64,000 nucleotides of DNA, taken from positions 921,453 to 985,452 of the forward strand of contig JAVLKG010000001.1 of NCBI GenBank assembly GCA_032128875.1, given 5' to 3'. Every line of letters begins with the position of its first letter. The stretch's first letter is position 1. The notes beneath the pieces are model-generated. The model was not told the origin of the DNA and did not search any database. It worked only from the letters and a program-made list of their open reading frames with translations. This document shows positions 24,274 to 43,456 of the stretch, piece by piece. The translations under genes were made by a program, and so were the position numbers. This stretch comes from Candidatus Melainabacteria bacterium 17Bon1m (lineage in GTDB: Bacteria > Cyanobacteriota > Vampirovibrionia > Obscuribacterales > Obscuribacteraceae).

Positions 24274-27147
24274 TTACTTCAGAGCTTCCTTAACTGCAGC
24301 AGTTAAGGTCTTCAGACCTTTTGCGACATCCTTGCTGAGATGAATGCGCAAAGCTCTTCTGCCTCTGTCGTTTAGCACTTTGAGATCGCCGCGAGCTTGA
24401 GCTGCCTTGACGACACCGAAGGTATACTTCTGCTGAGGTACCGGTAATTCTTCGGTATCATCGGCGGTGACCTGAAGGAACACGCCGCTATTGGGTCCGC
24501 CTTTGTAGGCTTGACCTGTCGAATGCAAGAAGCGTGGTCCAAAACCAAGGCAAGTTGCGACTTTCTTTGTGTCTCTAACTGCCAATCTTGCCTCTTGCAG
24601 CTCATCTTCATGAGCTTTCGTCATCTCGATGTAAGCAAGCAATGCCACATAATCATTTGCTTTTACACGTGAGAGATGTGATTTGAGAATAGATGCGAGT
24701 GTTTTGGTTGCGCCCGCACCTGCTTCAATTTCCTTTGTGTTTTTATCGTCAGCAAAGAGCTTGATACCCTCCGCTTCGAAGAATGGTTTTTCTTCGGGCA
24801 GGCTGCCGGACTTCTCATATGCTTCTGTAAGTTCGCGGGTCGCAACCTTACTGGCTTCGACGTCCGGTTGGTTGAAAGCGTTGATGCCGATAACAGCACC
24901 TGCTACGGCAGTGGCGATTTCCCATCGGAAGAATTCCTGACCGAGATTGTAGATGTCGGTAACAGTAATTCTCACAACCGGATGACCAGCCTTCTGTAAC
25001 GCTTCAATCGCTTTGTCTTGCTTTTCATCAGGAGATGATTCCAGCCGCAAGTAAGCAAACAGGCGGTCTTTGCCGTATGTCTCTGACGATGCGAGCGGCT
25101 CACGGTCGACAGGAATAATTCCTTTGCCGACTTTACCTGTGGATTCTGCGATTAATTGCTCGAGCCAGGCGCCCAGGTCATAGATCTTCGGCGAAGTCAC
25201 TAAGGTGATTTTGTCGCGTCCGGCTTTCGCTGCTTCGCCCATGATGATGCCCAGTACAGCTCCAGGATTTTCCTCCACCGGAACAGTCGCCGCACATGCG
25301 TGAGCCATTTCTCTTGCATTATCGAGGAATTTTGCAACGTCAAGTCCCATCACCGCAGCTGGTACCATGCCGAAATGAGACAGTGCTGAATAACGTCCAC
25401 CAATTCCCGGCAGTCCGAGGAAAATGTGGCGGAACTTTTCTTTCTCAGCCAGCGCTTGCAGTTTTGAGCCTGGGTCTGTCACTGCAATCCAGTGCTGACC
25501 AGCTTTATCTGCACCGACTGCTTCAACAGTCTTCTGCCAGAAGTATTGTTCGAAGATGTTCGGCTCGAGTGTTGTGCCTGATTTCGATGAAACAATAAAG
25601 ATAGTTTGTTTTACATCAATCGCTTTCTCTGCTGACTTCACTTGTTGTGGATCGGTCGAATCGAGAACATGAAGTTCGGGATAACCAGCTTCTTTAGGGA
25701 AAGTATTGCGCAGAACATCAGGGCAAAGGCTCGAACCACCCATACCCAAAAGCAAAGCGTATTTGAATTTCGCATCCTTGATCTCTTGCGCAAGCTTTTT
25801 CAAATTCTCAATGTGAGCGAGCTGGTCGTTAATGATGTTCAGCCAGTCGAGCCATTTGCTTTCTTCATCACCTGTCCAAAGTGAAGCGTCTCGCGACCAG
25901 AGCTTTTTGGTGTTATCCAATGTTTGCCAGTCGATAATTGCTTTTTCAACTGTCGGCTTCAAATCGCTCGGCAGTTCATACTTGAAATTATCGATCAAGG
26001 ACTTTTTTTCGGTAGCCCTCGCTTTCTCAACAGCGTCAAGTAGTTTTTTGAACGCATCTGCAAAAAGGTCGACACCTTGTTCAACCAATTTGTCTGTGAC
26101 TTCCTTCATTGAAATCTTCGATTTTTCGAGGTTTTCCATGACGGCATTGGCTTCTGGAAGTTCAGTTTCGAGCGTGCTCTTCACCACACCGTGATCTCTA
26201 AATGCATCGAATGTGCTCGGTGGAATGGTGTTGACTGTGTCTTTTCCGATCAATTCATCGACGTAGATGCAATCGGGGAATGCCGGGTTCTTTGTGCTGG
26301 TACTTGCCCAGAGCAGGCGTTGCGTTTGAGCGCCGCTCTTTTCGAGTTCTGTCCAGCGTGTATCTTTGATGATGTTCAGATATTTTTGATACGCTTGCTT
26401 TGCGTTGGCGATTGCCACTTTGCCGAGGACTTTGTTGAGCAAGGCTTTTTCTTCGCCTTGTGCTGTTTTCAATTTGTCTTCGATCATGCTGTCGATAAGA
26501 GTGTCGATGCGGCTGACGAAAAAGCTTGCTACGCTGGCTACGCTGTGCAAATCGCCGCCCGATTTTTTGAACTTTTCCAGACCGTCGATGTATGCCCAAT
26601 GGACTGCTTCGTAAGCTTCCTGCGAGAAGAGCAATGTGACATTGATGTTGATGCCTTCGCCGATCAATTCTTTGATTGCAGGAATACCTGCCTTGGTCGC
26701 CGGTACTTTGATCATTACGTTTGGACGGTTAACCCATTTCCACAGGCGCTTTGCTTCGTCGATGGTGCCCTGTGTGTCATTGGCGAGGAAGGGCGAAACT
26801 TCCATACTCACATAGCCGTCGCGCTTTTGCGTTTTCTCGTAAACCGGCTTGAGAATATCCGCAGCTTTTTGAATGTCTTCGACAGCGATGTGCTCATAGA
26901 TGTCCATTGCTTTGAGCTTGCTGTCTTTCTTCAATTCAGCGAGTTGGTCTGCATAATCATTGCTGCCAGCGATTGCCTTTTCGAAGATTGCTGGATTGGA
27001 AGTCATGCCCTTGAGACCGTCTTCTTCGACCAAGCGCTTGAGTTCACCACTGTTCAACAGGCTGCGACGAATATAATCGAGCCAGACGGATTGCCCGTGT
27101 GACGAGAGTTCGCGCAATGGATTGACTACCTGTTTGGCTGTGTTCAT
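24274..27147 (-). CDS. tal-pgi: Bifunctional transaldolase / glucose-6-phosphate isomerase
   Basis: [38 protein letters not shown] (Tal); [32 protein letters not shown] (PGI); AGGAG RBS before 27147. Confidence 0.95.
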
Positions 27148-27703
27148 TTTCTCTCTCCTGTGAGCAGCTGATTGTCCTGGCTTTTTGAACATTTAGCGCG
27201 CTGGGCGGCTTTTCCCTACTTATATAGGTGGTTGCAAAGCGGCTCTCTTGAATGGCACGGCGATACCGCGGGAAGCGGCAGCCCTTGCCATCGCGGGACA
27301 TCGCTAAATTCCCTGGCGTCAGAACGGACCAAAGATATCAGAAACTCATCCTTTATATGTCAAAGTTTAATCTATAAGTGACGAGCGTAAAGTTGGTGGT
27401 TCTGGGTCGAACCGCAGCGCGCGTATTGTCTTTTTCAATTGTGCGAAAGCGTGATGCTGTGCGCGCTGATGAGTGCACCACCAATGGTGACTGTTTTGCA
27501 ATCGGCCAAAAAACTCAATTGCAGGTTTATGTATGAATTCTGGGAGCGTGGATTAGTAATTAGTGGAAGTTAAAAAAATTGAGGTACTATGTTTTGGTAC
27601 CGGTGACCCGGGAATAAATCTGAGGCCAAGACAATTGCCTCGTTGGAAGTCAATAGAGGGTTCGGGGTAGCAATACCAAAAGTCTGGCTCGTGGAGGAGC
27701 AAC

Positions 27704-30284: not shown

Positions 30285-31181
30285 ATGCTGAAAACCACAA
30301 TATTTGCATCGACCATGGCAGTCCTTCTTGCTGCTTCAATAGCGATGCCATCAGACGCCGAGCCCAATGCAAAGAAAAAGCAGCAACAACAGTTACTGAA
30401 GCAACAAAAGTTGCAGCAGAAGCAGCAACAGCAACAAGAACTTCAAGCGCAACAAGGCGCTTACGACAATAGCAGCGGCAGCAACTCAGGTGGCGGTTCG
30501 AACAGCGGTGATTCGGCAGGAAGAAGTATGTCGATGTTCAAAGCCGGCAATACCACCCTGCCGGCGGGCACATATGCCATGACCAATGTCAGCAATGGTG
30601 CGGCATTTGTCGTAATTGTCGATGATAGCGGCGACATGCGCGCGCAAGATGCCCGGGCAATGAATCTTATTGACGAAAAGAATGCGCCCAAGGCGGCTAA
30701 AAATCGCAAGAATGGCGGATACGGCGGCAATTCCGGAAATGACCAAAATTATGATTCCGGAAACAACTACAACAATTCCAATAATGGCTATGACGGAAAT
30801 GACGGCGGTTATCGCACGAATAATTCGTCTGGCGGCTCTTCCAGCAATTTAGGACCCAACGGACTCTTGCCGCCGCAACCAACGCCTGCCTCCGCTGTTT
30901 TGCCGACGCAAAATTCGAGTGGTCATCCACTTTTGCAAGGCGCGACGCCCGGCAGTGTTTATGCGCCTGGGCAGCCATCGGGCGGTGGTTTACTTCCTAG
31001 CCTTTTGACAGGGCAGAATCCTCTTGGGCAGCAGAATTCGATGATGCCTGGGCAACCCGGACCTGGCGGCATACAAGGGAAAATTCAGTCAGAGCTGCAA
31101 CGTCAGCTAAACAAGCAACTTCTGAAGTATGGCAGCGGAAATCTAGAACAGCAGGTTCGCAAGATGATCAACAAGTTCTGA
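30285..31181 (+). CDS. Secreted low-complexity (Q/N/G-rich) hypothetical protein
   Basis: Signal peptide; poly-Q and N/G-rich tracts. Confidence 0.7.
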   Translation: MLKTTIFASTMAVLLAASIAMPSDAEPNAKKKQQQQLLKQQKLQQKQQQQQELQAQQGAYDNSSGSNSGGGSNSGDSAGRSMSMFKAGNTTLPAGTYAMTNVSNGAAFVVIVDDSGDMRAQDARAMNLIDEKNAPKAAKNRKNGGYGGNSGNDQNYDSGNNYNNSNNGYDGNDGGYRTNNSSGGSSSNLGPNGLLPPQPTPASAVLPTQNSSGHPLLQGATPGSVYAPGQPSGGGLLPSLLTGQNPLGQQNSMMPGQPGPGGIQGKIQSELQRQLNKQLLKYGSGNLEQQVRKMINKF

Positions 31182-32406: not shown

Positions 32407-32805
32407 GGGGGCGTTTAGATTCGACAGGGTTGTTGGGTCGTAGGCTGCAGGTCGAGGTCGCTTGGATCCTCGTTAAAAGCTGAGCAAAACAACAAACGCC
32501 AATGTAATCAGCGTTGATTTCTCCGCGAAGCGCGCTCTGCGCGCTGCCTAAAACTAACCTTTTAGAAGCGGAACTCGATAGTTTCTTGACTACCCGAAAC
32601 TAAAGGGTCAAACCACGGTGGTTGCCGCAGCACGAAGTTAGCGGTTAGTAGTGCTGCCTAAGACATAATCGCGAACCCGGGTAGCCGTTCAGGCTTCCTG
32701 CAGCGGGCTGAGCAATCAGCGACTGTAGAAATTTCTGAACTAAACTTGTAGACGCTTGCCTCTCGGCTTCTTTGGACGCGAGTGCGATTCTCGCCGCCTC
32801 CACCA
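32407..32805 (+). ncRNA. ssrA: tmRNA; tag peptide ANVISVDFSAKRALRAA* at 32498-32551
   Basis: 5' GGGGGCG pairs with 3' CGCCTCC-A-CCA including G3-U; GATTCGAC motif; T-arm GCGAG-TGCGATT-CTCGC; tag ends in AA. Confidence 0.97.
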
Positions 32806-32844
32806 TTTTCTATTTCAGATGCTTTTGTAGGGTCGACGCCATGC
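32787..32844 (+). repeat. attL direct repeat (58 bp)
   Basis: ATTCTCGCCGCCTCCACCATTTTCTATTTCAGATGCTTTTGTAGGGTCGACGCCATGC. Confidence 0.92.
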
Positions 32845-33017
32845 GTCGACCGCTTTTGCGCGGTTTCGAGCATTCTCAATAAGGAGAATGTGCGCAGGTT
32901 TGGCTCCTTTGTGGCCCGTCAATTTTTTTTTGGAACTGAAATCATCCGGTTTTCGCTTGGAATTTTGGGTGACGTAAAATGTCATCTGAAGCAACCAAAC
33001 AGATTTAGTAAAGCGTC

Positions 33018-33704
33018 GTGCCATCAACATCGATCAGACTTGTTTTTTCGAATCAGCGGATAGATCCAGCTCGAATCTCTGACGTTCTGGGCATGCAGCC
33101 GTCGCGGAAAGATCTTTCGTCAGACGATCAGAGACGCGGTTTTCCTTTTTGGGAACTGTCCTCGGATGAAGCCAACAAAGTAGAAGCGCAATTGCCGATT
33201 TGGATCGCCTTTTTGGAAAAGGTGCATATGCAGTTGAGAGCACTGAGTACTGAAGACCTGGGCGGTTATCTCGACGTGCGCGTGTACGAAGATAATTTCT
33301 ATGTTGAAGATCAACTGCTATCGCGGTTAGGCGCTTCCGGTATTGGAATAAGTGTTTGGTTCAATCCGCCGGAGCAAATGGAGTGGAAAGAACCTGAACA
33401 CTCATCCACTCTAATAATTCCTGAGCCAAACGGATTCTATTGCCAGCTTGATGAAGATCACTTTTTCAAATGGCTGCAAGACATTGAAGGTGTCAAGGAA
33501 GTGCGTGGACATTCTACTGGTTTGACTGTCTATTTGTCTGTCAGTGTTCTCTCTGATGCCTCTTTGCGCGATTTGATTGGACTTCTTTATCGATATGATC
33601 TTCCGATGGCGTTTTTGCGTTCGCAGCTCACTCCGAAAAACGCGCACTGGTTCAATGATCCGGAAAAGTTTTGGTATGAGAAGATTTTTGCAGAGGGTGC
33701 GTGA
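33018..33704 (+). CDS. Two-domain hypothetical protein (DUF4279-like N-terminus plus domain shared with 46102-46860)
   Basis: IDPARISDVLGMQPS; C-terminal FYCQLDEDHFF domain. Confidence 0.7.
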   Translation: MPSTSIRLVFSNQRIDPARISDVLGMQPSRKDLSSDDQRRGFPFWELSSDEANKVEAQLPIWIAFLEKVHMQLRALSTEDLGGYLDVRVYEDNFYVEDQLLSRLGASGIGISVWFNPPEQMEWKEPEHSSTLIIPEPNGFYCQLDEDHFFKWLQDIEGVKEVRGHSTGLTVYLSVSVLSDASLRDLIGLLYRYDLPMAFLRSQLTPKNAHWFNDPEKFWYEKIFAEGA

Positions 33705-34456
33705 TGCCAGAACGACATCCAATTTCAATCAAATCTTCGTCATTGACGTATCAGCCTTACGAGTTCTCGGGCGAATCTGGCTTGAGATTTTGGTTGTGGC
33801 GAGTTGAAATTGACGGAAAGTTGTTCTCGAAATCGATGTCTCCGTTTCGAGCGTCCGACGACAGAGTAGAACGATATGCTTGCGGTTACTGTGGTGTTGC
33901 AGGCGATGGCATGGTTTTTTACGATGTTCGCCGCTTGGGAGACCGAGTGATCTGGATTTATGAGGAGCTCTTAGAGGACTCTGGGAGAATCCAGGAGTTT
34001 GAGAACCTGCCGGAACTCTATGTGTTTGATGGCGCTGAGTACGAGAAAGAACTCGGCGCTGGGAGCGTTGCCGAATTGCCAGGCTTGACGATTACTGAGA
34101 TGCGAGCATTGCTACTCCGCTATCTTCCTCCAGCAGCACTTGCGTTGTATGTCAATCCAGAAAGCCCTGATGATCCGCGTGGATGCGCATTATTGCAGCA
34201 GGTTCATCGTGCGCTATCTGAGGATGGAGAAATAACTCCAGTATCCGGATGTCCAGGGGATCATATTGAAATAAGTATAGGACTGGATTTGCCGGGGGTG
34301 CCAGAGTGTCGCTGGTTTGTCGGAAAGAACGAGACAGGGGTGTGCGCGATGTTCGTCGCATTTCCACAGCTGCCATGTTGGATTGGTGGACAACAAGTTA
34401 CCGCAGCCTTTGATACGCGCAGTATCGCGCGGTTGCTGATACACAACGAGAGCTAA
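33701..34456 (+). CDS. Hypothetical protein with CxxC
   Basis: GTGA overlap with upstream stop; ACGYCG. Confidence 0.65.
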   Translation: MMPERHPISIKSSSLTYQPYEFSGESGLRFWLWRVEIDGKLFSKSMSPFRASDDRVERYACGYCGVAGDGMVFYDVRRLGDRVIWIYEELLEDSGRIQEFENLPELYVFDGAEYEKELGAGSVAELPGLTITEMRALLLRYLPPAALALYVNPESPDDPRGCALLQQVHRALSEDGEITPVSGCPGDHIEISIGLDLPGVPECRWFVGKNETGVCAMFVAFPQLPCWIGGQQVTAAFDTRSIARLLIHNES

Positions 34457-34482
34457 CTTGGACTGACTCCCTTTTGCATTGC

Positions 34483-34604
34483 TCATGACTTTGCCAACCG
34501 CCGAAGGGAGGGCTCGAGCAGTTTCTCCATACGAGCCGAATTTTCCGTCAGGTATCTTTGATGAATTTTGCGTAGTGCTTGAACGTCGTTTGTAGAGTTG
34601 AGTT
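34483..34604 (-). pseudogene. Probable C-terminal stub of a tyrosine integrase
   Basis: (N)STLQTTFKHYAKFIKD then, after a frameshift, LTENSARMEKLL; resembles the GHS....F.HYA.FI catalytic-Tyr segment. Confidence 0.45.
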
Positions 34605-34797
34605 GCTGTATTTCCCCGCAGTGTCGAGCAAACGATACAATCCGGTCACCATCGATTTTTGCAATCGAATTGAGGCGCAAGGAAAAAGTAAAATGGTGGC
34701 ACTCGGCGTTGAAATGCGCAAGCTATTGCACATAATCTATGGGGTCCTCAAGGCGGAAAAAACATTCAATGCAAAATTGCAGGTCCTCAATGCTTGA
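34603..34797 (+). pseudogene. IS110-family transposase C-terminal fragment
   Basis: LYFPAV..RYNP...RI..QGK.KMVALG..MRKLLHIIYGVLK...F. Confidence 0.8.
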
Positions 34798-34876
34798 CTA
34801 TCCGACTGACCAGTGTAGGTTTAGCAGCCTGCCGGTAAAATAGGACTTTGTAGATCGTGTTTTCGGAATACCTCAA

Positions 34877-35407
34877 TTGTCAGATGAACTTGCACGCCTG
34901 CAAAAGCTTTTAGAAACCGGGCAGCGTCTCTCTCTGCAAGGCTCTTATGAGCGTCGTGCAGCAGACAAAAAAGCAATGCCATATCTGCTTAATTGTAGGA
35001 CTGGATTGCGAAAATATGTGCGAGAACACCCTGACACAGTAGACGCCTGGTACGCACTTTCATTGGCGGAGGAATGCCTGCTAAATTTTCCTGCTGCGCG
35101 ACAATCCCTCGAGCAATATCTTGCACTAGGTGGAGAAAGGAGCAAGAAATTGCTCAAAAGGCTTGCCAATCTAAAGCAGTATGAGAAGAAGTGGTCGGAG
35201 CTGATGCTAAATCCGGTGCAACTTGAAAGTCTGGGTGTTTTTCTTGAACGCGAACTCGCAAAGTCAAACTGTGATCATTCAAATCGGCTGACCGAAGCTT
35301 GGCTCACAGATCACCTCAAGACCAAGCCGGCTCTTATACTCGAAGCGCTTAAGAGATATGGCGGTTACTGCGACTGCGAGGTGCTGCTTAATGTTGTTGC
35401 TGGATAG
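34877..35407 (+). CDS. DUF2695-like domain protein
   Basis: CDHS..LT.AWL ... GGYCDCEVLLN. Confidence 0.75.
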   Translation: MSDELARLQKLLETGQRLSLQGSYERRAADKKAMPYLLNCRTGLRKYVREHPDTVDAWYALSLAEECLLNFPAARQSLEQYLALGGERSKKLLKRLANLKQYEKKWSELMLNPVQLESLGVFLERELAKSNCDHSNRLTEAWLTDHLKTKPALILEALKRYGGYCDCEVLLNVVAG

Positions 35408-35564
35408 TTGGCCCAAGTGCAGAAATCATAACGGCACCAGGTTTGATTGTAATTGAAGACATGAGAAGGATGTAGTCATGCGATATTTCGGACGTTTAGT
35501 ATATTGACGTTATTTTACCAAAGCCTGAGAAAGGCTCGCTATCAGGTAACAGCTCATTCTCATT

Positions 35565-36461
35565 TCAGTTCAAGATTTCCAGCAACTGTTCAATTACATG
35601 ACTTACGTCTCGTTGCCGAAGAATCCTAGACTCTTTTGTCGCTTCTTCATTACTCTCGCCCAGTTCGAACTTCGCGACGGCTACTGGACCGTCCTTTTGA
35701 TAGCCTTCCACCTTCTCATCTCGTGCGAATCGTTTACGCAATACGTCTAACGCCGAGCGAACTGTTTCCGCGTGCTTGCCGTCCAACTCTTTTCGAAACT
35801 GCTCTTTAGCGGCAGTTACTCCGCCGGGTGCGTGTTCAAGGCAGTAGAGTAAATCATGCGCGTCCTTGCGTTCATTGCGCTGATCAAAAGCAAATGCTTT
35901 CAGGCAAGTGAACGAAACCAGATTCGCAAATCTTACTTTTTCAGTTGCGACACCGTTACCACCCAAGAGTTCAGCTTGAATCTCTTTGATCGCGTGCAGA
36001 TCAAAAACCATTGATGAGTGTGGAACATTCAATGCCGAAATTGTCTTCTCCGTTGGTAGTGCTTCTACTTTTCCGCCACCCAACTCCTCCGATTCGGAAA
36101 TGAGCTCAAGAATAACTGTGACATCGGCCTCGGTCTTGGTTTTCCAGCGCCAAGAGAGTTTTTTGCCAGCTTCATTCTCAGCGCGTTCGAACTCCATCTT
36201 TTTCAGATTCTCTTCAAGCGTGTGATAGGCCTCAGTATTAGCCAGAATCTGCAAGTCGATTACAATATCTACGTCCTGAGTACCAGCATGTGGAGGCACG
36301 CCCTCTCCGCTTGCATCGACTAAGTATCTTGGCGTCAGTCCGCCGATTAAATACACCGAATCCTTCCATGGACCTAGTCCTCGTAACAGCGTCACGAGAA
36401 CACGCTCGCAGTCGAGCGTGTATTCTTCATCGTACCCGTCGAAAGTCTTTGGCTTCGGCAT
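35565..36461 (-). CDS. AbiEii/MenT-like nucleotidyltransferase (putative toxin)
   Basis: YLIGGL, GTQDVD, LKAFA and KDAHD motifs; ATG overlaps upstream stop (TAATG). Confidence 0.75.
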   Translation of the reverse strand: MPKPKTFDGYDEEYTLDCERVLVTLLRGLGPWKDSVYLIGGLTPRYLVDASGEGVPPHAGTQDVDIVIDLQILANTEAYHTLEENLKKMEFERAENEAGKKLSWRWKTKTEADVTVILELISESEELGGGKVEALPTEKTISALNVPHSSMVFDLHAIKEIQAELLGGNGVATEKVRFANLVSFTCLKAFAFDQRNERKDAHDLLYCLEHAPGGVTAAKEQFRKELDGKHAETVRSALDVLRKRFARDEKVEGYQKDGPVAVAKFELGESNEEATKESRILRQRDVSHVIEQLLEILN

Positions 36462-37534
36462 TAGAAACCAATCCTCTCGTTTCGGAGATGTTCTGCCATC
36501 TCCATGGAACGTCCCTCGCCGTGCATCAAGTCCAGATACACCTGTACAGGACTTGCCAGCCAAATGTTGTCGATTTCATTTCGAAAGAGCAATCCGCCAT
36601 GTGCATCGGTTTCGATGATTCCGAGATTGGATCCTTCAACTACCGGTCGTGCCCCTAATTTAGAAATTGCATCTTGCGATTCAGGGGATTTGATCATCCT
36701 TAGCCGGATCTGCGAAATACTGGACAGAAATGGTGCATAGCGCTGTGCTGCGTATTCATAACTGACTGCGTACGCTATGTTGTTTTTTTTGCCAAACTGT
36801 TCGCCGATTCGTTGCATCAAGCCATCAGCTTTTACTCCAGGCACGTAATAGCGGTCCATTGCTGGTGATGGACGCTCCCTCACTTCTTTTGCCCATGCGT
36901 CGAGCAATGCGGTAGGCTGAGATAGTTGTCGCTCCTTTCTCGGTCCCTTTCCTTGCAATGATATCCAGTCCTGCCGCTCCAACTCTGAAAAAACTTCTGA
37001 TACCGTAGCTGGTGACACCATAGCTACTTCTGCGAGTTCATGAACCCCAAACCAACGCTCATGATGGACAAGAATCGCGTGGATTACTTGAGCCCGCCGT
37101 CCGGAAAACAGGGATCGAACGGCCCTTTCAAATGGCTTTGCTGACGGTCTCTCTAAATAACAGTACGCACCCGGCGCAGGCAGGTACAAACTGCCGCCGC
37201 TTTCAAAATATCCAATCTGCTCTGCTTGCAATTGCGCCTTCGCTCCAGGAGAAAGGTATTCTGCAATCATCACAAGAACGATGTCCTTGTGCGAAGGCAG
37301 CGCCTCCTCCGCTCGACGTAGTTGCCAGATCGCTTGCTGCACATCGCGCGGGTAGCCTGCTCTCTTTGCTTCCACAAGCAAGGTTAGTTCTTTGCCCGCT
37401 ACCTTTAAGTCGATTTTCGCATCAGCTGGTAGAGGCCGCTCTACTTCCAATTTTGCACGTACTTCTGGAAGTGCCTCAAGGCTCTTGAGAAACTCATGAA
37501 TCAATTGCTGCTCGTACTGTAGACCTTCCATCAT
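36461..37534 (-). CDS. AbiEi-like (DUF2186-type) antitoxin / transcriptional regulator
   Basis: HTH (VHELAEVAMVSPATVS), LLDAW, ASPVQVYLDL..GR..E.AEHLR. Confidence 0.75.
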   Translation of the reverse strand: MMEGLQYEQQLIHEFLKSLEALPEVRAKLEVERPLPADAKIDLKVAGKELTLLVEAKRAGYPRDVQQAIWQLRRAEEALPSHKDIVLVMIAEYLSPGAKAQLQAEQIGYFESGGSLYLPAPGAYCYLERPSAKPFERAVRSLFSGRRAQVIHAILVHHERWFGVHELAEVAMVSPATVSEVFSELERQDWISLQGKGPRKERQLSQPTALLDAWAKEVRERPSPAMDRYYVPGVKADGLMQRIGEQFGKKNNIAYAVSYEYAAQRYAPFLSSISQIRLRMIKSPESQDAISKLGARPVVEGSNLGIIETDAHGGLLFRNEIDNIWLASPVQVYLDLMHGEGRSMEMAEHLRNERIGF

Positions 37535-37548
37535 ATTCGCCGTATAGC

Positions 37549-37628
37549 CCATATTTACTGTACAGTAAATATGGCAAATTTGCAAGAAAATTCGCCATAG
37601 CGCTTATATTCGCTGTACAGTAAATATA
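37549..37628. promoter_or_regulatory. Two inverted-repeat operators upstream of the toxin-antitoxin operon
   Basis: Perfect 26-bp palindrome CCATATTTACTGTACAGTAAATATGG (37549-37574); imperfect copy TATATTCGCTGTACAGTAAATATA (37605-37628). Confidence 0.8.
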
Positions 37629-37855
37629 GGGAAAAGCGCAAATAACGCTACTGGAGAAGGATACGTGCCAATGCAAGCAGGATAAGCAGCCAAACCTACC
37701 CCAAAATTCCTTCAAAAGCTGTGGCCCATTTTGTGACCCCTCATGTGTCCATTTAGGACCATTAGCGCCGCTTCGCGCAAGCGACAAAAATCCCGAAAGC
37801 CGCACCATCAACCAAAATCAATTGACGAGTCTTAATGAGAATGGCTGCCCAGGCT

Positions 37856-37912
37856 ATTCTCGCCGCCTCCACCATTTTCATTTCAGATGCTTTTGTGGGG
37901 GCGACGCCATGC
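37856..37912 (+). repeat. attR direct repeat (57 bp; displaced tmRNA 3' end)
   Basis: Matches 32787-32844 with 1 indel and 2 substitutions. Confidence 0.92.
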
Positions 37913-37995
37913 AAAGATCGCCGGAACAAAATCGGCGATCAAAGCCTTGTACCTAGCTTGTGCATAAAGCCCTAAAGCATTAGGTATCATCACGC

Positions 37996-42889: not shown

Positions 42890-43456
42890 TCATGACAGTG
42901 TCATCATCAACAGGCCGTAGGGAGCTAGACCCTTTCGCGCTTCCTTCAGATCGAAACGCTCGGCATCAAAGCTTGGCAGTGTCGAACCGACCAAAGTTAA
43001 CTGTCTTACGAGACGCAGATAGCCAGGCACACCGCCACAGTCTTCAGGTGGGCAGGCACGCGCACCGGCGATGCAATCTGGGTAGAAACCCTTGGGAGCT
43101 GGTGGCAGGATGGCTTCAATCTCTAGTTCATGCCGCCAATCATCGCCGAAATCGTAGATGTACAAGAACTTGTCGCCTACTTGCAGATCAAAGAACTTGA
43201 GCTTGGATTTTGTGCCGCGTTCGCTGATGAGTGCACGGTCACCGTTTCCGTCGGGATCGCCATATCGCTTACCGGCGATTTCAAATTCATGCAAATGGCA
43301 GTTCTGCCAGCCGAACGCGCCCTGTATGCACTCGTGAACCTGTTCGAGCTTGATATTTCCTGGTAGCAAGAAACGGCGCCAAATCGCTGGCGTTATTCCG
43401 AGCAATGTTACTCGCACTTGAAAGACAACGGCACCGGGCTTGATTGTAGGAGACAA
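42890..43456 (-). CDS. Plasmid pRiA4b ORF-3 family protein
   Basis: IWRR, GW...HLHEF, YDFGDDW.H, CPPEDCGG. Confidence 0.9.
   Translation of the reverse strand: MSPTIKPGAVVFQVRVTLLGITPAIWRRFLLPGNIKLEQVHECIQGAFGWQNCHLHEFEIAGKRYGDPDGNGDRALISERGTKSKLKFFDLQVGDKFLYIYDFGDDWRHELEIEAILPPAPKGFYPDCIAGARACPPEDCGGVPGYLRLVRQLTLVGSTLPSFDAERFDLKEARKGLAPYGLLMMTLS

Follow-up and report, generated by a model that had tools for sequence, protein, structure and literature searches.

A tmRNA-gene island of Obscuribacterales that has probably lost its tyrosine integrase gene

Introduction

In the 64-kb window of Candidatus Melainabacteria bacterium 17Bon1m that was analysed here (the whole stretch of DNA, in whose coordinates all positions are given), the 3' end of the transfer-messenger RNA (tmRNA) gene, ssrA, is found a second time 5.07 kb downstream. 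The locus raises the question of whether the interval between the two copies is an integrated island and whether such an island could still move. The organism belongs to the Obscuribacterales, which are non-photosynthetic relatives of cyanobacteria. In our study, the interval was assigned by sequence comparison to a family of ssrA-specific tyrosine-integrase islands of the Obscuribacterales. We consider it probable (with a probability of about 0.8) that it is an integrative island of a family which targets ssrA from the T-loop to the CCA end, and that it is immobile by itself, its integrase gene having been deleted.

The ssrA gene was described as a frequent integration site in the relevant passages of two previous studies (PMC3146451, PMC11915505). 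In the portions of the literature returned by our search, we found no account of islands at ssrA for Obscuribacterales or Melainabacteria.

Materials and methods

The DNA studied was the 64-kb window, which contains the island and its flanks. For the relatives, one genome per species was scanned with a 19-nucleotide (nt) sequence from the ssrA end, which gave at least 123 loci (labelled in the style L001 to L123). Up to 10 kb of flanking sequence was available for 79 of these at least 123 loci, and the source genome itself was not among them. For L080 to L123 the comparison covered about 600 nt per locus.

Results

Duplication of the ssrA 3' end

The tmRNA gene was identified with Rfam, and the match covered the full covariance model with a score above the gathering threshold (Table 1). 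ARAGORN called no tRNA or tmRNA in the whole window, and Rfam was needed to find the gene. Island finders that are built on tRNA/tmRNA calls would therefore overlook these islands, and the missed tmRNA of this lineage is a warning for annotation. A T-loop of TGCGATT was shared by all 12 sequences, the window and 11 relatives, in an alignment of the P' side (the P' and P arms are the island-side flanks of the attachment sites attL and attR, respectively). A putative tag reading frame ending in ...ALRAA, at about 32499-32552, was picked out by eye only.

The 19-mer ATTCTCGCCGCCTCCACCA, which runs from the ATT of the T-loop through the CCA, was found in two exact copies in the 64 kb, one at 32787-32805 and the other at 37856-37874. 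Its copy number stayed at two when three mismatches were permitted, and none of 100 shuffled sequences gave two matches. In the alignment of the copies, 24 exact nt were followed by a 1-nt indel, 17 further exact nt and two substitutions, ending at 32844 and 37912, respectively. Weaker similarity continued to 32853 and 37921, and the copies lay 5069 nt apart from start to start. The initial annotation had placed a duplicate of the tmRNA 3' end at 37856-37912, with one indel and two substitutions, and both the pairwise alignment and a repeat finder returned exactly this result. The interval is bounded by the 3' end of the tmRNA gene and, on its far side, by a direct repeat of this end.

An island family with its own integrase and an empty site

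Among the loci listed, the closest relatives were metagenome-assembled genomes titled Obscuribacterales, Melainabacteria or "Cyanobacteria bacterium". The ssrA identity to the window was 99.4% in L085, 99.2% in L055/L056, 95.5% in L027 and 94.7% in L089. The PrmA protein of L056 was 91% identical to that of the window, and the genes upstream were collinear. Similarity to the P' arm was found to follow ssrA or a copy of the core in 16 other contigs, and similarity to the P arm preceded a core copy in nine contigs, both counted among the loci listed. The P arm was present at full length in five contigs (L027, L038, L053, L056 and L121), with 88-91% identity over 148-163 nt. In the relatives, the arms beside the core were conserved and the cargo between them differed. 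Islands with two cores were found in L027 (5.9 kb), L056 (6.8 kb), L074/L075 (3.2 kb) and L120/L121 (5.7 kb).

Homologues of a tyrosine integrase were found with tblastn in seven contigs among the loci listed. All of them were transcribed toward ssrA, and the integrase gene of the relatives adjoined attL. Intact integrase open reading frames (ORFs) were present in L056 (380 amino acids, aa), L016 (390 aa) and L005 (383 aa; 59% identical), and the L056 protein contained Phage_integrase, SAM-like and central integrase domains. The L027 integrase gave one in-frame alignment split into ORFs of 243 and 125 aa, that is, with an internal stop; L011 and L006 had lost about the first 146 residues, and the match in L008 lay on a contig of 853 nt, which is too short to judge its completeness. 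The records of L011 and L007 were titled Planktothrix sp. and Drouetiella sp., respectively, yet their PrmA-ssrA arrangement was of the Obscuribacterales type, and L011 contained the island arms together with a truncated integrase that shares 82% identity with the L056 protein. These titles may reflect a binning or labelling issue.

L016 and L053 were found to be contig ends of one genome. The L016 side contained ssrA, the core, the P' arm and the intact integrase gene, followed on the L053 side by the P arm, the core and the flank. In L090, which came from a different genome, nucleotides 297-619 matched the ssrA region of L016 (9701-10023) with 98.5% identity and nucleotides 1-322 matched the flank in L053 (9704-10022) with 96% identity. 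The two matches overlapped in the 26-nt core only; L090 therefore represents the precise unoccupied site of the L016/L053 island, and the island family is therefore a discrete insertion into ssrA. In the more distant L035, L015, L007 and L051, housekeeping-type genes were present directly after ssrA. The proposal of an island in the ssrA 3' end was upheld by the repeats, by relatives with the same arms and an intact tyrosine integrase, and by the empty site in L090. The initial annotation had also considered that all relatives might carry the interval with no empty site; at the level of the family, L090 is unoccupied at the site of the L016/L053 island.

Two further arrangements of the core were observed among the relatives. 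In L074 (9997-13264, on a contig shared with L075), an islet of 3.2 kb was present between two exact 26-nt cores. It contained 54 nt of the P arm only, with no P' arm and no integrase, and is a second integrase-less ssrA islet; its ORFs include DUF695 and SF0329 family proteins. In L038 (2429-2702) and L071 (1-207), the P arm, the core and part of the P' arm were contiguous. This contiguity, seen on a 4-kb contig and at a contig start, respectively, could come either from a circular form, as an attP-like junction, or from the point where two tandem islands adjoin.

Remnants of the integrase and IS110 transposase genes

A six-frame Pfam scan of the island (109 stop-to-stop pieces, E<=1) gave no recombinase domain, nor was one found in 10 local ORFs or in 48 further ORFs of the window, which bore out the earlier statement that an intact integrase is lacking. 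The six-frame Pfam scan missed two gene remnants that were revealed by tblastn with the proteins of the relatives, namely the 3' stubs of an integrase gene and of an IS110-family transposase gene. The integrase stub of about 40 codons, which the initial annotation had overlooked, was found with the integrases of L027, L056 and L006 (E 2.5e-6 to 9e-5). It was convincing from about 34604 leftward and reads ...STLQTTFKHYA.FIKD. With blastn, an identity of 75-81% to the 3' ends of the L011 and L016 integrase genes extended down to nucleotide 34481. To the right of 34604, the tblastn alignment was a reverse reading of the IS110 stub and was rejected as not real. The L056 transposase is intact, with 329 aa, and the IS110 stub shared 63% aa identity with its residues 265-329 (E 3e-23); the stub also matched positions 285-341 of the 343 positions of NCBIfam NF033542 (E 2.4e-4).

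An integrase gene belonging to the island was present in L056, L016 and L005 and was not found in the window. Similarly, a complete IS110 element, with a DEDD transposase of about 330 aa and both ends, was not found in the window, where the equivalent of residues 265-329 remains. In L056, read in the orientation of the window, the order was attL, P' arm, integrase gene (leftward), o143 (rightward), IS110 (rightward), further cargo, P arm and attR. The order of the integrase gene, o143 and IS110 fits the orientation of both stubs of the window. A single deletion, from about codon 337 of the integrase gene to about codon 264 of the transposase gene, would yield the tail-to-tail junction of the window, and by an arithmetic estimate it would correspond to about 2.8 kb in L056 coordinates.

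Paired GTGGCCC repeats in the arms

In each arm of the family, the GTGGCCC repeat occurred twice at a spacing of 12 nt, with the consensus TGTGGCCCCTTTTGTGGCCCG in the P' arm and TGTGGCCCATTTTGTGGCCCC in the P arm. We suggest that these repeats are candidate arm-type sites of the integrase. The exact GTGGCCC motif occurred in the 64-kb window in two copies only, one per arm. The second copy of the P' arm had two substitutions and a 1-nt deletion, and the second copy of the P arm was changed to GTGACCC; these changes were private to the window. Four of the nine window-private changes in the arms fell within GTGGCCC repeats. The att sites had been called intact by the initial annotation, which held for the core, exact at both ends, and failed in part for the arms. 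The window copy can be described as attL and attR flanks between which no recombinase is encoded, with two of the four arm repeats mutated.

The AbiE-like pair

The right part of the island contained a regulator gene and a nucleotidyltransferase gene with the operon layout of AbiE, in which the regulator gene comes first and overlaps the nucleotidyltransferase gene; here the TAA stop of the former and the ATG of the latter share one base at 36461. Motifs I to IV of AbiEii were given, in the available text of PMC3985639, as hG[G/S]...DhD (I/II), KLxAaxxR (III) and +DxxD (IV). The G40 G41, D63 D65, K188/A191/R195 and K199 D200 D203 residues of the nucleotidyltransferase, invariant in a 20-sequence alignment, fit these motifs. 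Compared with the same text, the second position of motif III was A and not L in the window, and motifs I and II were separated by 21 residues in the window and by x15 in the paper.

Neither protein reached the gathering score of its AbiE family in Pfam. The nucleotidyltransferase scored 14.0-14.4 bits against AbiEii (PF08843; cut-off 22.5), and the regulator matched HTH_Crp_2 (E 4.6e-4) and AbiEi_2 (PF09952) with an E of 0.005 and 17.6 bits (cut-off 21). AbiEii matches at E<=0.1 were found in four of 20 homologues of the nucleotidyltransferase (best 6e-6), and the AbiEii model of PADLOC matched the window protein with an E of 0.0018. The nucleotidyltransferase had 2397 homologues; the best 120 of these 2397 were mostly 298 aa long, some relatives were annotated as "antitoxin" and a few carried PF08843. 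The PDB sequence searches gave no match for the nucleotidyltransferase, and its AlphaFold2 model was poor, with a mean predicted local distance difference test score of 48. For the regulator, the PDB sequence search gave the small winged-helix protein 4ham_A only (E 2.4e-4), and proteins of 85-86% aa identity were found in L050 and L053.

Two palindromes were present upstream of the regulator gene. The abiE promoter contains paired inverted repeats through which AbiEi autoregulates, as described in the relevant parts of PMC3985639 and PMC7319586, and by analogy the palindromes of the window are likely to be the operator. The window pair thus resembles the type IV system AbiE, as presented in the text of PMC3985639 available, in having the regulator gene first and overlapping with a nucleotidyltransferase gene of the DNA-polymerase-beta type, in motifs I to IV and in the paired upstream palindromes. 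It differs in the AbiEii and AbiEi_2 scores, which were under the Pfam cut-offs, and in about 150 extra N-terminal residues of the regulator. The toxin-antitoxin pair proposed by the initial annotation gained support from the AbiEii motifs and the operon layout, though the Pfam scores were below the cut-offs. The pair would have toxin-antitoxin activity and probably acts as an addiction or abortive-infection module.

The cassette from 35565 to 37668 was found with 85-87% nt identity in L050 (7815-9915), L053 (7757-9846) and L090 (2-143). It was present directly after the core in L053 and after ssrA itself in L050 and L090, that is, outside an att-bounded element, whereas it lay inside the element in the window. 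The cassette therefore moves among ssrA-proximal contexts and is not tied to one island backbone. Protein relatives with about 70% identity were also present in Betaproteobacteria, including one record titled as a Caballeronia plasmid.

Other cargo and the flanks

The remaining cargo comprised three ORFs (Table 1). DUF4279, to which the 228-aa ORF showed weak similarity, is the immunity family FdL-Imm5 in the section of PMC9424270 concerned. A homologue of this ORF with 70% aa identity adjoined the P' arm in L040, where it was fused to a sub-threshold WapI-like immunity domain. A homologous C-terminal half was found in L011 and L016, and the Atlas search with this ORF gave nothing usable. The "immunity-like genes" of the initial annotation come down to this one sub-threshold DUF4279 match and the WapI-fused homologue of L040. 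The first 31 aa of the 251-aa ORF were found in L085 directly after the P' arm. The matches with PADLOC were all weak.

The "GNAT" gene of the right flank matched Acetyltransf_1 with an E of 0.022 only, its product had no match in the PDB sequence search, and the next gene encodes agmatinase. L068 was tried as a syntenic empty site and rejected: its homologue of the 914-aa glycoside hydrolase was 2.3 kb from ssrA on the opposite relative strand, and an unrelated ORF of 489 aa lay between the hydrolase homologue and ssrA. The L056 contig stops 181 nt past its attR.

Elsewhere in the window, a 972-aa ORF (24274-27192, minus strand) contained transaldolase and phosphoglucose isomerase domains in one frame. 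Between an esterase gene and prmA, an ORF (30285-31181, plus strand) encodes a 298-aa protein with a high content of Q, N, G and S, conserved with 67% aa identity in L056 and 44% in L027; its sole Pfam match was a weak one to a glycine-rich protein family. A PRiA4_ORF3-like gene (PF07929, E 9e-50; 42890-43456, minus strand) adjoined the GH63-like hydrolase gene, and the PRiA4_ORF3-like domain was also found near ssrA in L025, fused there to TPR repeats.

Table 1. Features of the ssrA island in the 64-kb window.
Feature	Position	Strand	Evidence and remarks
tmRNA gene (ssrA), integration target	32407-32805	+	Rfam RF00023, 119.5 bits against gathering threshold of 47, model 1-374 of 374
attL: ssrA 3' end (T-loop ATT to CCA) and about 48 nt	32787-32853	+	Exact 24-nt core at 32787-32810
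P' arm, island-side flank of attL	32806-32990	+	One intact GTGGCCC (32911-32917), one degenerate copy (about 32898-32907)
ORF of 228 aa with weak similarity to DUF4279 (immunity family FdL-Imm5)	33018-33704	+	Pfam E 0.0036, 18 bits against cut-off of 25
ORF of 251 aa, no family	33701-34456	+	No Pfam, NCBIfam or PADLOC match; unnamed clusters only in Atlas
Tyrosine-integrase 3' remnant, about the last 40 codons, catalytic-tyrosine region	about 34481-34604	-	In-frame stop at 34548-34550
IS110-family transposase 3' remnant, last 65 codons	34600-34794	+	tblastn with L056 transposase; NCBIfam
ORF of 176 aa, C-terminal DUF2695 and weak TPR-like N-terminal part	34877-35407	+	PF10905 E 4.8e-17, 62 bits
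AbiEii-like nucleotidyltransferase, putative toxin, 298 aa (ATG at 36461)	35565-36461	-	Motifs I-IV
AbiEi-like regulator (helix-turn-helix and AbiEi_2-like C-terminal domain), putative antitoxin, 374 aa	36461-37585	-	Sub-threshold AbiEi_2 match
Two palindromes, likely operator	37549-37628		Perfect, 26 nt (37549-37574); imperfect (37605-37628); upstream of regulator gene
P arm, island-side flank of attR	37693-37855	+	One intact GTGGCCC (37721-37727), one mutated GTGACCC (37733-37739)
attR: displaced copy of ssrA 3' end and downstream sequence	37856-37921	+	Repeat alignment

Discussion

The island would have been inserted by a tyrosine integrase, with the tmRNA 3' end rebuilt from the copy carried by the island (attL) and the displaced native end of ssrA left 5.07 kb downstream (attR). 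In a later single deletion, the integrase gene may have lost about its first 337 codons and the neighbouring IS110 transposase gene about its first 264, together with the spacer, which would have left two tail-to-tail stubs at about 34600. The integrase gene being mostly deleted, the element would no longer be able to excise by its own means. The cargo that is left comprises the AbiE-like regulator and nucleotidyltransferase pair, the DUF2695 protein and two small ORFs.

Several observations weigh against this account, or against parts of it. The arms do not show a general decay, since they were no more diverged than those of relatives that carry an integrase: over 164 columns of the P arm, five private changes were found in the window against 13 in L056, which has an integrase, and over 155 columns of the P' arm, four against six. 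The clustering of changes in the GTGGCCC repeats was spotted after the fact and therefore lends only modest support to a decay of the sites. With 63% identity, the IS110 copies of the window and of L056 are different elements, and independent insertions or a larger number of events than one deletion are therefore conceivable. On the right side, the initial annotation had proposed to look for an empty ssrA site abutting the GNAT-like gene, which would be the window's own empty site; none was found among the loci listed, and neither the GNAT-like protein nor the agmatinase had a tblastn match in any of the 123 loci listed. The GC content was 0.46-0.51 inside the island and 0.46-0.56 outside, and neither GC content nor skew marks the island. 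Finally, the source genome was read over 64 kb, and an integrase encoded beyond this range might act in trans.

That there is no island, and that the second copy is an assembly artefact, a chance match or a local duplication of the ssrA end, is extremely improbable. Apart from the fact that the window is an assembly, nothing was found in favour of it. The two copies differ by an indel and substitutions, and the two-copy layout is shared by L027, L056, L074/L075 and L120/L121; an assembly artefact is thereby excluded as the origin of the second copy, a concern which the initial annotation had itself raised and which four other independent assemblies with this layout dispel. The shuffled sequences without two matches and the recurrence of homologous arms in these assemblies point the same way. 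A different history, in which two tandem islands were fused by a deletion, is possible but doubtful. One island would have supplied the P' arm, the 228- and 251-aa ORFs and the integrase tail, joined to the IS110 tail, the DUF2695 gene, the AbiE-like pair and the P arm of the other. The contiguous P arm, core and partial P' arm in L038 and at the start of L071 are consistent with such a fusion, as is the position of the AbiE-like cassette directly after the core in L053 and after ssrA in L050 and L090. However, no third, internal copy of the core was found in the window, even with three mismatches, and in L056 the integrase gene and IS110 are neighbours in one and the same island, so that one island is enough. 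This fusion concerns the history only and is compatible both with an island that lost its integrase gene and with mobilisation in trans.

It is unlikely, in our estimate, that the element still excises and moves as a cis-mobilisable one, with attL and attR used by the integrase of a sibling island or of an incoming element. The exact core at both ends and the one intact GTGGCCC repeat per arm would allow it, and the P arm was 88-91% identical to the arms of integrase-bearing islands, against 77-79% for the neighbouring chromosome in the same relatives. The L074/L075 islet is a second integrase-less case between exact cores, and tandem or integrase-less ssrA islands were interpreted in this way in Dehalococcoides, in the sections of PMC3146451 concerned. 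Against this stand the lack of an integrase in the 64-kb window and the window-private changes that affect otherwise constant positions in two of the four arm repeats. The wider proposal, of a maintained cis-mobilisable cassette in an undescribed family of Obscuribacterales ssrA islands, in which the GTGGCCC repeats are arm sites, accretion and deletion shuffle the cargo and a sibling integrase acts in trans, seems improbable to a like extent. An island that lost its integrase gene and became immobile by itself is the reading that we prefer.

The preferred reading places the interval among the islands and prophages that a tyrosine integrase inserts at the ssrA 3' end, with which it shares a target that begins in the T-loop, a direct repeat at the far boundary and a variable cargo; unlike theirs, the integrase gene of the window copy is reduced to about 40 codons. 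The Dehalococcoides ssrA islands, as reported in the passages of PMC3146451 at hand, are similar in their insertion in the T-loop and in the conserved sequence beside the direct repeats. Several of them occur in tandem, and some are without integration genes and were read as cis-mobilisable or fixed. These islands have the serine recombinase DsiB (CcrB-like) and an integration module of six genes, whereas the family of the window has a tyrosine integrase with Phage_integrase and SAM-like domains. Integration into ssrA, tandem accretion and integrase-less islands are already well described. Integrase-less tmRNA islands are common, and the finding itself is therefore ordinary, the loss of the integrase being a usual stage of decay. 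The island may have been retained because of the AbiE-like addiction or defence module, or merely along with it.

The value of the locus is modest. It documents a family of ssrA-specific islands in an uncultured lineage that has been little studied, and the arms, core, cognate integrase and empty site of this family can be identified from sequence. Stages of decay are found side by side in this family, from an intact integrase through a nonsense mutation and an N-terminal truncation to a stub of about 40 codons, and the paired GTGGCCC repeats provide concrete and testable candidates for the arm sites of the integrase.

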